Source: an uncultured Gemmatimonadales bacterium
GTDB lineage: Bacteria > Gemmatimonadota > Gemmatimonadetes > Longimicrobiales > RSA9
Assembly: GCA_963798085.1 (NCBI GenBank)
Contig: CAWCRS010000009.1
Coordinates: forward strand, 64,001-128,000
Reading direction: 5' to 3'
DNA length: 64,000 bases
How positions within the stretch are numbered: the first letter of the stretch is position 1; the number at the start of each line of letters is the position of its first letter. Shown one piece after another: positions 9,945-15,522 of this stretch. The notes below the pieces were generated by a model that was not told the DNA's origin, did not search any database, and saw nothing but the letters and a program-made list of their open reading frames with translations. The position numbers and the translations under genes are program-made.

Positions 9945-10923
9945 ATGCAGAGGGTTCGAACACCCCTGCTTGTCGTCCTGGCGGCCATCGCTGGTTGCGC
10001 TCGAGGCGCGCCAGCAGCTTCCGGTCGCATTGTCCTCGCGGACCAGCGACGGTATCCCTGCTCGCTGGTGGTCGAGCCGACCGGTATCGCGCTGCGCAGC
10101 GACGTCAACGGTACGACACCCGACGCCGGCGCTTCGGCGGCGCGCGACAGCCGCGGGCGCTTCATTACGAGCACCTCAGCGGGCGGAACACTCGCCCTGT
10201 GGACGCCCGCGGGCGTGTTCGACCGGATGCTGGCGCGGCCCGGGCGCGGGCCAGGCGAACTCGTCGGCTACGTCAATGTTTTCGTTGCCGCGGGCGACAC
10301 CATCTACGCGCGCGACAACACGGCTCGGATCAGTGTGTTCGCTCCGGATGGCTCCTTCGTTCGTCGCTTTCCGGCGCGCTACGCGGGCGGAATGACTGGC
10401 AGCACGCTGTTTGGTTCGAATGGCGAGATCGTGTCTGCGGCAGCCAGCGCAGCGGCAGACTCTCGCGCCTGCTTCCACGTGTCCGATCATGAAGGGAACC
10501 ACATCCGGTCCTTCGGCCAGCTCGATACCGAGGACAGCGTCGCGTTCGCGGAAAGACTGCTGACTCTCGTGTCGGACCATTCACCGCGAGGCACCCTCTG
10601 GGTGGCCGTGAGGCGGGGTTCGCCGCGCGGCTACGAGCTGCAGGAGTGGTCCATCGCGGGAACGCGACTGCGGTCCATCCACCGCAACGCATCATGGTTC
10701 CCCATCCACGAGTGGCCCGCGCCATTGCGCGAGCGACCGGGCGGCACGGTGTTCGGCGTACACGTGGACAGCCTGGGCCGGCTTCTCGTGCACGCCACGG
10801 TGCCAAACGCACGCGTGGTTGCCACCGCGCGACGGTGAGGGCACGAAGCTCGAATACTTCGATCAGCACATCGAAGTGATCGACTGCCGGAGCCTCAACC
10901 GCCCGCCACGGCGGGCACGATAA
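9945..10923 (+). CDS. Beta-propeller-like lipoprotein, probable frameshift near 10812
   Basis: IAGC lipobox; GRGPGEL and ISVFAPDGSFVR blade motifs. The frame stops at 10838 but another frame continues ...EYFDQHIEVID to TAA 10923. Confidence 0.6.
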
Positions 10924-11170
10924 TCACTTCGTCGCCATCCGCCACGGTCACTGCGAACCCGCCCCGCAGACGCACATCCTCGTCGTTCAGGTAGTACACG
11001 ACGAACTCGTAGGGATTGCCCTGTGCGTCGCGCAGTCGCGGCGCCAGCGCGGGAAACCGGCTGGACACGTCGGCCACCGCTTCGCCCAGTGTTGCCCCCG
11101 CCGCCTGCAGCTCGCGCGCGCCACCCGCCAGCTCGGCCAGCACCTTCGGTAACTGTATGGTTATCGCCAT
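10895..11170 (-). CDS. MoaD/ThiS/CysO-like sulfur carrier protein
   Basis: 91 aa ubiquitin-like protein ending IVPAVAGG. Confidence 0.92.
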   Translation of the reverse strand: MAITIQLPKVLAELAGGARELQAAGATLGEAVADVSSRFPALAPRLRDAQGNPYEFVVYYLNDEDVRLRGGFAVTVADGDEVIIVPAVAGG

Positions 11171-11306: not shown

Positions 11307-12703
11307 TCAGGCCGCTTCCGCCAGCGCCGCGACTTCGCGCAGACGGGGTGAAATAATGGGCGATTCCGGCAGCACGCTGGCCGGGACTTCCACGGTCTTG
11401 AGGCCGTTCCCCGTGATGCACAGAACGACATCGTCGTCCGGCCGGAAATGGCCGGCGGCAGCCAGGCGCAGGGCCGCGGCAACGGTGACACCACCCGCAG
11501 TTTCGGCGAACACGCCACACGTCTCGGCCAGCAGGCGGATCGCCGCGATCAGCTCCGCATCGCTCACGGCGGCCGCCCAGCCGCCGCTCTCGCGAATGGC
11601 GCGAATGGCGGTGGGTGCATCCGCGGGATTCCCGATAGCGAGCGAGCGCGCAATCGTGGCTGGAATGACGGGCTGTATGCGGCGCGGCGCCGCTCTCGAC
11701 CGCGCGCACGATCGGTGCGCAGCCTTCCGCCTGTGCGCCGAAGAGGCGCGGCAGCTCGCCTTCCGCGAGTGCAGCGTCGCGCACCTCGCCGAAGCCTTTC
11801 GCGAGTTTCGTGACCAGTGAGCCGCCGGCCATGGGTGCTACCACGGCACTCGGGAATCGCCAGCCGCACTGTTCGGCGATCTCGAACGCCATCGTCTTCG
11901 AGCCTTCGCCGTAGTAGCTGCGCAGATTCACATTCACGATGCCCCAGCCGAAGCGGTCGGCAACCTGTGCGCACAGCCGGTTCACATCGTCGTAGGTACC
12001 TCGCACCCGCACCAGGCGAGGCGCATACACGACCGGTGCCGATGATCTTGCCCGGCTCGAGGTCCGCGGGAATGAAGATCCAGGCGGTGAGGCCAGCGCG
12101 CGCGGCGTGCGCCGCGACCGCATTGGCGAGGTTGCCCGTCGATGCGCAGCCGATGGTGTCGAGGTGAAAACCCGCGGCGGCATTGATGGCGCTGGAGACG
12201 ACGCGATCCTTGAAGGAGAGCGATGGATGCGAGACCGCATCGTTCTTGATCCACGCGCTCGCCACGCCCAGTCTGGCCGCGAGTGCAGGCGCTTCCAGCA
12301 ACGGCGTGAAGCCGCTGTCCGGCGAGTGCAGCGGTGCGCCGTCGTAGGGCAGCCACTCGGCATAGCGCCAGAGTGAAGGCGGGCGGCGCGCGATTTCGTC
12401 GCGCCCGGGCAGCGTGCGCTGCGCATCATAGACGGGTTCGAGCGGACCCAGGCAGTGGGCGCAGATGGCGAGCGGCTCCGCGGCGAAGTGCGCGCCGCAC
12501 GCCTTGCAGGACAGCGGGTGAGGGACCGGGGGTATCGCCCCGCCTGTGCGCCCCGAGACGGCCACTCTGGTGGAACGATCCCTCGCCGGCTGGCAGCCGG
12601 GACGTTCACCGCCACCTCCCGCATCACTCGACCCTGTGAATGCGAGGGCAGCGGTGCCCGCCCCGGCAAATGCCGTCGTTGCTGCTGCGGTCTGCTGACT
12701 CAT
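11307..12703 (-). CDS. thrC: Threonine synthase-like PLP enzyme, split by frameshifts near 12030 and 11680
   Basis: CKACG/CAHC zinc ribbon, GFTPL, SFKDR (PLP Lys), ASTGNLA, EGSKTMAFEIAEQ, ITGNGLKT spread over three frames; ATG overlaps the panB stop. Confidence 0.85.
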
Positions 12704-13566
12704 GCGTTAGCTCCTGTGAGGCGAGCGAGGTGGATTTCCGCCTCGCACGCGGGATCAATGGCGTAGCAGTGTTCCGGACCCGGGAAGCGACCGGCGCGCA
12801 CGTCGTCCGCGTATTCGCGGAACGCGTTCTCGACCGTGCTGCCCAGATTGGCGTAGCGTTTGACGAATCGGGGTGCAATGTCGCCGACGAAGCTGCCCAG
12901 CAGATCGTGCGAGATGACGAGCTGCCCGTCGACATGCGGGCCGGCGCCAATGCCGTACAGCGGGATGCTGAGCCGTTCGCGCACGAGCGCCGCCGTCTCG
13001 GCGGGCACTGCTTCAATCAGCACCGCAAACGCGCCCGCATCCTCGAGCTGTTGCGCGGCATCAGCCAGGCGCCGTGCGGCAGCCAGAGACCGTCCCTGCA
13101 CGCGATAACCGCCGAGCTGGCCGAGGCTCTGCGGCGTGAGCCCGATGTGACCCATCACCGCAATGCCGGCATCCACCATGGCGCGCACACGCGGTACCAC
13201 CGCTTCGCCACCCTCGCACTTCACGGCATCGCAGCCGGCCTGACCCACGAAGGCGCCGGCACTGCGTACCGCCGTCTCATCCGATGGCTGATAGGAGAGA
13301 AATGGCAGGTCGCCGATCACGAAGGCCCGGCGCGCAGCGTGCGCAACGGCGCGTGCGAACACCAGCATCTCGGTCATCCCGATGCCGAGCGTGTTGGGCA
13401 GACCGAGCATGGTCATGGCCGCCGAGTCGCCGACCAGGAGCATGTCGACACCCGCACGGTCTGCGAATGCCGCGGTCGGATAGTCGTAGGCCGTGAGGAA
13501 AACGGCGCGTTCGCCTTTTGCCCGCTTGGCCGCGAGTGTCGCGACCGTCACCTTGCCGCCTGCCAT
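12700..13566 (-). CDS. panB: 3-methyl-2-oxobutanoate hydroxymethyltransferase
   Basis: LTAYDY, LVGDS, DLPFLSY, GHIGLTPQS, GIGAG, DGQLVISHD. Confidence 0.96.
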   Translation of the reverse strand: MAGGKVTVATLAAKRAKGERAVFLTAYDYPTAAFADRAGVDMLLVGDSAAMTMLGLPNTLGIGMTEMLVFARAVAHAARRAFVIGDLPFLSYQPSDETAVRSAGAFVGQAGCDAVKCEGGEAVVPRVRAMVDAGIAVMGHIGLTPQSLGQLGGYRVQGRSLAAARRLADAAQQLEDAGAFAVLIEAVPAETAALVRERLSIPLYGIGAGPHVDGQLVISHDLLGSFVGDIAPRFVKRYANLGSTVENAFREYADDVRAGRFPGPEHCYAIDPACEAEIHLARLTGANA

Positions 13567-13600
13567 GATTCACTCCCGCTCCGGCCGGAGCTGCATCCGT

Positions 13601-13644
13601 TGAAACGAGAACCGGCCGCCCGTCTTGCGCCGGGCGGCCGGTTC
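13601..13644 (-). terminator. Attenuator/terminator-like hairpin upstream of panB
   Basis: Perfect 14-bp stem (13609-13622 with 13631-13644), 8-nt loop, followed on the minus strand by UCGUUUC (weak U tract). Confidence 0.6.
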
Positions 13645-13663
13645 GTGGGTCCTGCGCTCGCAC

Positions 13664-13777
13664 TCAGCTGCGTCCAGCGCCATCCACTCTCCGGTCGCTC
13701 GGCGACACGGCGTGACACATGTACATGGTCATCGCCATGTACCTGTGTCCGAGAGTGAGCACCACCCGCCAGCTCAT
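13664..13777 (-). CDS. Putative Met/Cys-rich leader peptide (37 aa)
   Basis: MSWRVVLTLGHRYMAMTMYMCHAVSPSDRRVDGAGRS*; MAMTMYMC cluster; stop lies about 20 nt before the hairpin. Confidence 0.55.
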   Translation of the reverse strand: MSWRVVLTLGHRYMAMTMYMCHAVSPSDRRVDGAGRS

Positions 13778-13795
13778 GCGCGATCTCGATCCCCC

Positions 13796-13829
13796 AAAAC
13801 AAAAAAAGCCCGCGAGCGCAGCCGCGGGC
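13796..13829 (-). terminator. Intrinsic terminator (riboswitch expression platform)
   Basis: GCCCGCG-N8-CGCGGGC followed by UUUUUUUGUUUU on the minus strand. Confidence 0.85.
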
Positions 13830-13887
13830 GGTCGCTTTTTAGCATTTGTTTAACGTGGCTGCAATATGCGGCAAATCGCCACGACCG
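13829..13887 (-). ncRNA. SAM-II (SAM-alpha) riboswitch aptamer
   Basis: Minus strand reads UCGUGGCGAUUUGCCGCAUAUUGCAGCCACGUUAAACAAAUGCUAAAAAG: P1 CGUGGC/GCCACG, GAUUU loop, UUGC and 3' GCUAAA, matching the SAM-II H-type pseudoknot consensus. Confidence 0.85.
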
Positions 13888-13903
13888 AATTGTTGTGAGC
13901 GGG

Positions 13904-13932
13904 ATGATGCAACGTCGCAGGCGCCGTGTCAA
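13904..13932 (-). promoter_or_regulatory. Sigma70-type promoter for the SAM-II leader
   Basis: TTGACA (13932-13927), 17-nt spacer, CATCAT (13909-13904); the -35 overlaps the stop of the upstream gene. Confidence 0.65.
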
Positions 13933-14573
13933 TGCCTTTGCTGCCGGGCCGTGTCCGGCAACGCCACGCTCGTGCCCGCACGCGTGTAGCCCCACGGGGG
14001 CGCGGGGCGCAGCGCCGCGCGCGCGAGGTCGAAATCCACCCGGAACTGCTCGGCGCCAGCCGAACGCACAGCGTACGTCAGCCGCGTGTGCGGCACCAGC
14101 TCGAGCGTCCACAACGTGGAAGCCGCCGACGGAACCTCGTGCACGGTGTGCTCATCGGCGCGGAATTCCTGGCGTGACTTCGTGCCCTCGTTCCACGTCT
14201 CACCGCCATAACCGCTGTACTCGGTGGGGCTGCCATCGCGAGCGTGCAGCTGGTGCTTCAGCGTGAGCCCGCTGCCGGACGCGGCCACCACCCAGACGCG
14301 CGAACGATCCTCGCCCACATGGAAGGCGAGGCGCAGTTCGCGCGGGTAGCACTGCCACACCTCCAGCACCAGGGGCTGGCCGACTAACGCGCTGTCAGCG
14401 GGCGCTGCCTGTACCAGGCGACCCGGAAAGGCACGCCCGCACAGCGAGCGCAGCTGGTTCCAGAAAGCGCGCTGCACCGGGTTCGCCACTGCGGGAGGCC
14501 GGCCGCAGCCCGCGAGTACCGCCAGCAGGAAGCTCAGCGTCAGCAGCACGCCCCGGTCCCACCGTGAAGACAT
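13929..14573 (-). CDS. Hypothetical secreted lipoprotein
   Basis: LAVLAGC lipobox; FWNQLRSLCGRAF, HVGEDRSRVW, YGGET motifs. Confidence 0.75.
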   Translation of the reverse strand: MSSRWDRGVLLTLSFLLAVLAGCGRPPAVANPVQRAFWNQLRSLCGRAFPGRLVQAAPADSALVGQPLVLEVWQCYPRELRLAFHVGEDRSRVWVVAASGSGLTLKHQLHARDGSPTEYSGYGGETWNEGTKSRQEFRADEHTVHEVPSAASTLWTLELVPHTRLTYAVRSAGAEQFRVDFDLARAALRPAPPWGYTRAGTSVALPDTARQQRH

Positions 14574-14683
14574 CCCGCTCCCTGCATCTGAGGTCCGCGT
14601 AATTCCCGTCCGCCGCACAAGTTACCGGGCGAGGCACGGCAGGTCGATGGGGCCTTTGCGTTGCCCGGCGAGTCAGAGAATGC

Positions 14684-15342
14684 CCCGCACGACGCATGGG
14701 GTCGCACATGACCCGACAATCCGTACCTTGACGACAAAGGAAACACCCCCCGATGCGGATACTCATAGGCGAACGTCACGAACCATGCGCCGAAGGGCGT
14801 GCGGGTCGCAGCACAGGACCCAATGGCAAGGCGCGGGGTTCGCGGGTCTGGACCGGGACGGTGCTGGTGAGGCGCGATGATGGGCTTCCCGCAGCGACAC
14901 CCCCGCACACCGCCGCCGGCGGCCCGAACGACGAGAAGTCCTTAGAGACCTCAACCGTGTGTGTGCGTCCGGTGAGCCCCGTCACCCGACACATCAAGCC
15001 GAGCGCACACTCCCGGTCGCGGTGACTCTGAAGCGGCAGTCGCAGTCGCAGTAACGCCGACGAGCATCGCACACCTCACGGCGCCGGGACCAACACATCC
15101 CGGCGCCGCCCCTCCATCGCACCGCCGAGAGCGGAGAGCGCGCGGAAAACGTCCAGGGACGCAGCGCGCTGCGCGAGCTTTGCCGGGCCGCGGCAATAGC
15201 GCTCTAACGACACGTTACGCAGGGAGCGGCAGCCGGCAGCTCCGTGCGGTTCGGCTTCCCGGGTTCCGTTGAGACGGCTTCGGGAAGACGTGAACGCGGG
15301 TGGCACGAATAGGAGGTCAAGATCGACGCTGAATCGTGCCGC
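14684..15342 (+). ncRNA. Candidate large structured ncRNA (~660 nt), class unknown
   Basis: No credible ORF; many nested and long-range complementary segments with A-rich linkers on the + strand (see findings). Confidence 0.55.
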
Positions 15343-15522
15343 CGTGCAGTGCGCGCGCGACGCCGGCTGGTGGCGCGTCTTTCAACGGATCAACTGACCA
15401 GCGGATCAACGGATCACAGGCATCCGATCCAGCGCTCTCCACGCGCGGCCGCGCGTTCATGCACCTCCCGCCCTCCCCGGCGCCCTCCTCGCCCTCCGCG
15501 GTGAGGAGGGCGGACCGCGCGA

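Follow-up and report, generated by a model that had tools for sequence, protein, structure and literature searches.

A predicted SAM-II riboswitch and methionine-codon attenuator arranged in tandem ahead of a panB paralogue in Gemmatimonadota

A SAM-II riboswitch with an intrinsic terminator is known from metZ of S. meliloti (RF00521; PMC9373788, accessible part). The leader described here resembles it in having an aptamer with P1 and a pseudoknot, a terminator directly behind, and methionine-related genes downstream. In contrast, a second terminator, predicted to be coupled to translation, follows here, and the host belongs to Gemmatimonadota; no paper on SAM-II in Gemmatimonadota was found in the open-licence literature. 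The trp and his attenuators, as presented in the available sections of PMC1183508, share with the second half of this leader a cluster of cognate codons, an antiterminator strand within a short ORF, and a stop codon near the terminator, and candidate attenuators with Cys and Phe leader peptides appear in the part of PMC8632094 at hand. However, the regulatory codon of this leader is Met, and the antiterminator strand (segment 2), at a distance of 19-42 nt upstream of the last base of the stop codon, falls outside a ribosome parked there. Neither Met codons as leader-peptide control codons nor a leader peptide devoted to methionine was the subject of any paper found in the open-licence main texts. 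To our knowledge, Met control codons are known only within the mixed Thr/Ile/Met thrA leaders of Pasteurellales.

A riboswitch and a leader peptide are combined in mgtA. Tandem gates are described as pairs of SAM-II/SAM-II, SAM-II/SAM-V, ppGpp/T-box, and AdoCbl/T-box in the accessible part of PMC9481103. As in those gates, two sensors stand in series here, and the T-box cases likewise pair a metabolite sensor with a sensor of tRNA charging; unlike those gates, the second sensor here is an ORF, predicted to be translated. The available main text of PMC9481103 contains no occurrence of 'attenuat' or 'peptide'. The nearest case of tandem attenuators is Salmonella mgtCBR with mgtM and mgtP (PMC3641672, in part), in which one leader carries two attenuation switches and one of them reads tRNA charging via a codon-rich ORF. 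As far as that excerpt goes, mgtCBR has no aptamer and its signals add, whereas the first switch here is a ligand-binding aptamer, and expression is predicted to depend on both. No description of a Met leader peptide behind a SAM riboswitch was found in open-licence main texts, including the accessible portions of PMC2965389 and PMC5473149; supplements may list these aptamers. Both modules are of known kinds, and their pairing, which the preliminary description had not recognized from the literature, was not found in print in the open-licence main texts.

The leader lies on the minus strand of the window, a 64,000-nucleotide stretch of DNA from an uncultured Gemmatimonadales bacterium to which all positions refer. 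Every part of the tandem leader was found at the minus-strand positions first given for it, namely a promoter, an aptamer, a GC hairpin with a U tract, a 37-codon ORF with the sequence MSWRVVLTLGHRYMAMTMYMCHAVSPSDRRVDGAGRS, and a perfect 14-bp hairpin followed by panB (Table 1). The stretch from the ORF through the second terminator (13790-13595) folded better than its shuffles (z = -5.3). A short-read contig, which may derive from the source sample, spanned 13623-13888 with one mismatch and none in the Met codons; contigs from this source span neither the tail of the second terminator nor the breaks in the thrC-like gene. Other Rfam families compared with the second half of the leader (P35, mir-1538, and others) all scored far below cut-off, and the leader peptide had no match in Pfam. 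Genome-wide, 332 terminator-like sites included 2 with a short upstream ORF of at least 3 Met codons and a gene behind, one being this leader and the other appearing to be the end of a long gene. At the chosen thresholds, no candidate for a Trp, His, Leu, Ile, or Thr attenuator in the genome-wide scan was convincing. The gene upstream of the leader (14573-13929, minus strand) had no Pfam or NCBIfam match. A perfect 14-nt palindrome at 13594-13581 (minus strand), just 5' of the panB ribosome-binding site, is absent from three aligned relatives.

Table 1. Features of the tandem leader and the genes behind it (window positions)
Feature	Position	Strand	Details
Sigma70-type promoter	13904..13932	-	-35 at 13932-13927, -10 at 13909-13904; TTGACA-17-CATCAT
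SAM-II aptamer (predicted)	13833..13883	-	P1 13883-13878 with 13859-13854; pseudoknot P2, loop with 13843-13833
Terminator T1 (predicted)	13796..13829	-	8-pair stem 13829-13808, then U tract
Candidate ribosome-binding site of leader ORF, weak	13788..13795	-	From sequence only; long spacing to ORF
Leader ORF, 37 codons	13664..13777	-	Met cluster at codons 14-20 plus one Cys, 13738-13715
Segment 1 (putative protector)	13749..13757	-	Partner of segment 2 when the ORF is untranslated, MFE model only
Segment 2 (putative antiterminator strand inside ORF)	13684..13704	-	Pairs with 13648-13628
Terminator T2 (predicted)	13602..13644	-	Perfect 14-bp hairpin 13644-13609, weak U tail
panB paralogue, first operon gene	12700..13566	-	PF02548, TIGR00222
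thrC-like PLP enzyme (nearest PRK08197)	11307..12703	-	Three frames, breaks near 12035 and 11680
MoaD/ThiS-like sulfur carrier	10895..11170	-	Gly-Gly C-terminus

We consider it likely that this tandem leader acts as a gate, with two independent premature-termination switches in series on one transcript. At the first switch, bound SAM would lock the SAM-II pseudoknot and with it the loop bases that, when free, can pair with T1's 5' arm; at high SAM, T1 would form and transcription would stop, and at low SAM polymerase would read through. At the second switch, a ribosome would translate the 37-codon ORF and, when Met-tRNA is scarce, stall on codons 14-20. Segment 2 could then pair with the emerging 5' arm of T2, and polymerase would enter panB2-thrC-like-moaD. 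When Met-tRNA is plentiful, the ribosome would pass segment 2 to reach the stop codon 22 nt before T2, and T2 would form. Expression would be expected only when SAM and charged Met-tRNA are both low (NOR logic). A Met attenuator faces a problem of its own, in that Met is needed both to start translation and to read the control codons. The preliminary description had read the leader as a SAM-II riboswitch followed by a leader-peptide attenuator, and the comparative tests reported below (Met frame, stop spacing, pairing, and stand-alone modules) support that reading.

The promoter is the sole promoter-like site in 12500-15500 (shuffle mean 0.2), and transcription would start near 13896. Of 82 distinct orthologous leaders, 77 had TTGAC no more than 70 nt upstream of P1, and in 74 of these the distance was 47-52 nt (background 0.02). 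The covariance-model check that had been proposed for the SAM-II aptamer gave an RF00521 (SAM_alpha) match at 13883-13835 just above the gathering cut-off (36.5 bits vs 36; model positions 10-62), and RF01726 scored 28.7 on the same leader, under its cut-off of 44. All 8 aptamer-bearing relatives tested exceeded the RF00521 cut-off, with 38-52 bits. Over 61 sequences, the 14 pairs of P1 and the H-type pseudoknot P2 were 97.9% paired, vs 26-52% when slid, with two compensatory changes and conserved bases in the loop and 3' strand. Neither RF00521 nor our own model R1 detected a second SAM-II in the genome. The 5' arm and loop of T1 can alternatively pair with the aptamer loop at 13874-13866 (antiterminator 1); this duplex was computed at -11.1 kcal/mol here, with a mean of -12.6 over 84 leaders, and a one-base loop insertion in 3 relatives (L031, L034, L041) was matched by a change in T1. 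T1 and this antiterminator are computationally predicted to form an expression platform that is exclusive with the SAM-bound fold.

The aptamer motif was found upstream of panB in 127 of 162 orthologous loci, the window counted; many of the other 35 loci are cut short or distant. In a group of short leaders with no ORF (L038, L040, L045, L051, and kin), a T2-like hairpin with a U tract directly follows a weakened T1, and a stretch is complementary to the 3' end of the aptamer. These leaders possibly carry another type of expression platform, which remained once the ORF had been lost.

The leader ORF has four clustered internal Met codons, at 14, 16, 18, and 20, with Cys at 21. The anti-SD sequence CCUCCU is present in the genome, and the ribosome-binding site of the ORF is poor. 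Among the 127 aptamer-bearing loci (the panB set), 98 have at most 190 nt ahead of the first gene, which leaves no room for the ORF. The remaining 29 are longer, and 21 of these had a second terminator more than 130 nt on, corresponding to 16 distinct leaders at 90% similarity. The T2 finder was motif-free; L059 and L189, which have similar ORFs, failed its tail rule and were left out of the counts. The ATG-richest frame stopped 22-38 nt before T2 in all 16 distinct leaders (22 nt in this one), compared to 2 of 32 other frames, and all 16 had at least 2 internal Met codons 10-25 codons before the stop. Met made up 65 of 676 codons after the start in these leaders vs 1.7% in the proteome. Because the frame had been chosen by ATG count, the same choice was repeated on 500 shuffles, which gave 42.5 +/- 3.6 ATG (maximum 53) compared to the 81 observed.

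For an independent set, the aptamer-region model matched 36 of 73 genomes of the window's family and yielded 35 loci (29 primary and 6 second matches), with one second match and one partial match left out. T2 was found in 32 of the 35. Exactly one frame stopped 12-50 nt before T2 in 20 loci, so that the frame was picked by its stop alone. In those frames Met accounted for 65 of 320 codons (20%) at positions -25 to -10, two of the 65 being start codons, vs 0.2% of 640 codons in other frames. At least 2 internal Met codons were present in 17 of the 20 loci, one Met in 1, and only Cys in 2; by inspection, the other 12 T2-bearing loci had a Met-rich frame among two or three candidates. The comparison of relatives' leaders that had been suggested as a check showed clustered Met codons kept in frame in both sets. 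As read from their N-termini, the genes behind the independent leaders resemble metY, aspartokinase, homoserine dehydrogenase, metX-like, thrC-like, and rhodanese genes. Unpublished genomes contributed L002 and L197 (G016), L194 (G076), and L195 (G019) to the aptamer, independent-set, and homoserine-dehydrogenase tallies, L194 and L195 being 2 of the 20 single-stop loci; the conclusions are independent of them. The same tandem leader precedes genes of a single family at L205, L215, and L219 (genomes G017, G013, and G055). In both sets Met codons are mostly interleaved with codons for Cys, Arg, His, or Tyr, which results in alternating purines and pyrimidines and in local hairpins; a slippage origin or a pause structure is possible.

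The T2 tail has 6 U in 10, and a consensus terminator scan gave no call; in most relatives the U tract of the homologous hairpin is longer. The best duplex with the 5' arm of T2 started 31-42 nt before the end of the stop codon in 14 of 16 leaders. A 10-pair antiterminator helix was 83.9% paired over 18 leaders vs 28-48% when slid, and covariation in this helix within the panB set was not above shuffles because the sequence is conserved. Across 36 leaders, ORFs paired better with their own T2 arms than with those of other leaders (residual -3.09 vs -2.08 for the most extreme of 10,000 permutations), although the leaders are related and p-values are therefore overstated. For the antiterminator of this leader alone, the result was not significant (p 0.32). 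At the level of the family, these sequences point to an antiterminator that would be exclusive with T2 and downstream of the control codons.

When all sequence upstream was blocked as far as a Met-stalled ribosome, the nascent RNA of the window was predicted to form the antiterminator (-45.4 or -42.2 kcal/mol). The finished T2 fold was lower by 15-19 kcal/mol (-64.5 vs -45.4; -57.6 vs -42.2), so the switch would have to be kinetic. A ribosome at the stop codon leaves segment 2 uncovered. With the footprint modelled as 30 unpaired bases at the stop, pairing of the T2 arm with segment 2 was 0.75, vs 0.78 when stalled, and footprint-only folding of 16 leaders gave the expected drop in pairing only in L117 and weakly in L041. 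Since pairing persists around the modelled ribosome, the switch would rest on timing and steric exclusion. For the state with no ribosome, the single best fold and the ensemble disagree.

The family could be a real Met attenuator and this copy's second switch nevertheless degenerate, such that T2 always forms or rarely terminates. We regard this as unlikely. The start, the four Met codons, the 22 nt stop spacing, and segment 2 are all retained, and the ORF ranks its own T2 arm 3rd of 36, against which stand a T2 hairpin that at -34.4 kcal/mol is the strongest of 16, one extra mismatch in the antiterminator, and a U tail weaker than those of L113 and L112. The thrC-like gene is also broken into three frames in the assembly; however, of 24 genes tested across the assembly, 3 are split between frames, so the breaks may be sequencing errors. 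Sequencing or assembly error and decay are indistinguishable here, and either may account for the breaks.

Riboswitch-only (for example L047), attenuator-only, and combined leaders occur among the orthologues, and comparison of these sequences indicates that the modules are separable. Predicted stand-alone Met attenuators at L112:2710-3003, L111:410-691, and L062:2300-2600 consist of a promoter, a Met-rich ORF, and T2 with no aptamer, and the attenuator module is the sole visible control in all three. L112 is a close orthologue (82%; L111, 81%), its -10 hexamer is identical to that of this leader, and the end of its upstream gene matches that of the gene upstream here. On a quick PanB tree, from which short and duplicate rows were excluded, the long leaders were scattered with 8 changes, of which well-supported branches force only 2; repeated loss or swapping of modules is likely from this distribution. 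Such natural riboswitch-only, attenuator-only, and combined alleles before the same operon make it testable both how cells separate SAM from Met-tRNA status and by what steps regulatory modules come and go.

These stand-alone leaders also bear on whether only the SAM-II riboswitch regulates, with T2 a constitutive damper or the end of an sRNA and the ATG run a by-product of self-complementary hairpin repeats. The Met codons do sit in a hairpin, Met is followed chiefly by Cys, Arg, or another Met, which favours self-pairing, and the accessible part of PMC9373788 offers a precedent in the non-switching second terminator behind the S. meliloti metA riboswitch. We nevertheless find this account very improbable, given a module that stands alone as the sole visible control at 3 loci, a frame and stop spacing fixed in 16 of 16 leaders, Met enrichment even where the frame was chosen by the stop alone, and plain poly-Met runs in the leader ORFs of L214 and L227.

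The second module had been described as a Met/Cys leader peptide. Met was borne out as a well-supported signal by frame, enrichment, and spacing; Cys may have a role in some members, with one Cys codon in this ORF and null models that disagree. Cys was present in the control window of 9 of 16 relatives. It was not enriched across relatives against a dinucleotide null (39 vs 41.4), nor against other frames in the panB and independent sets, and both of these tests are conservative. Against a mononucleotide null in which non-Met codons were shuffled base-wise, a liberal test, Cys was 3.4- to 3.7-fold enriched (18 vs 5.3 and 28 vs 7.6). Behind a SAM-II aptamer, the leader ORFs of L223 and L224 contain Cys at alternating codons and lack any internal Met. 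SAM-dependent stalling of a nascent peptide is known in plant CGS1. That the ORF is translated but senses something besides Met-tRNA, be it Cys-tRNA in addition or a ligand causing the nascent peptide to stall, is the least probable of the explanations considered. In its favour, Cys is the codon after Met in 25 of 117 cases, the mononucleotide null shows Cys enrichment, two leaders are Cys-only, and peptide tails are rich in Arg, Pro, and Gly. Against it, the peptides are not conserved beyond their Met content, the tail is accounted for by antiterminator pairing, and Cys is neither enriched under the dinucleotide null nor present more than once here.

This panB has its best orthologues in Gemmatimonadota, and another panB copy, 47% identical, lies on C7 of the genome. 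A pantothenate operon was rejected given that other copy and the sulfur and homoserine neighbours. By sequence and context, thrC-like and moaD-like genes join this panB paralogue in what appears to be a Met/homoserine operon. Flanks of at most 3 kb at the 162 orthologous loci contained moaD (92 loci), moeZ (86), an aminotransferase gene (84), and thrB (80). The clade of this paralogue (the window and loci L031-L190) travels with aminotransferase, thrB, thrC-like, moaD, and moeZ genes. A MetM/MetO/MoeZ homocysteine route is listed in GapMind 2026 (PMC13759103, in part); the ThrC-like, MoaD, and MoeZ proteins of this operon family, which also has thrB and the aminotransferase, resemble that route, and the comparison is one of resemblance only.

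Homoserine dehydrogenase (PF00742) was not found in this 90% complete genome, and it was present in 8 of 50 genomes with this panB clade (50 of 80 loci; the genomes are possibly incomplete). Within the family, PF00742 was present in 24 of 26 other genomes with a strong aptamer match and in 1 of 4 where the aptamer leads panB. According to the part of a preprint available to us, PanB of P. putida, acting as a pyruvate-formaldehyde aldolase, gave partial rescue of a homoserine auxotroph (bioRxiv 10.1101/2025.02.17.638773). The panB paralogue may supply homoserine, by a candidate route from pyruvate and C1. In that route, the PanB paralogue would hydroxymethylate pyruvate to 4-hydroxy-2-oxobutanoate, the aminotransferase would convert this to homoserine, and ThrB with ThrC-like/MoaD/MoeZ would lead to homocysteine. 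The predicted regulation by this leader flags the panB paralogue as a likely misannotated enzyme of the homoserine pathway. The widest proposal, that Gemmatimonadota have a dedicated family of Met-codon attenuators, which occurs by itself, is lost, or is placed behind SAM-II to form a riboswitch-plus-ribosome NOR gate, and which here would control a hitherto undescribed natural homoserine route bypassing aspartate, is tentative and on balance doubtful. At L188 (~2600-2830), a leader that lacks an aptamer combines a hairpin with an ORF holding a run of six Thr codons; it precedes an operon that has an aminotransferase and a panB paralogue.
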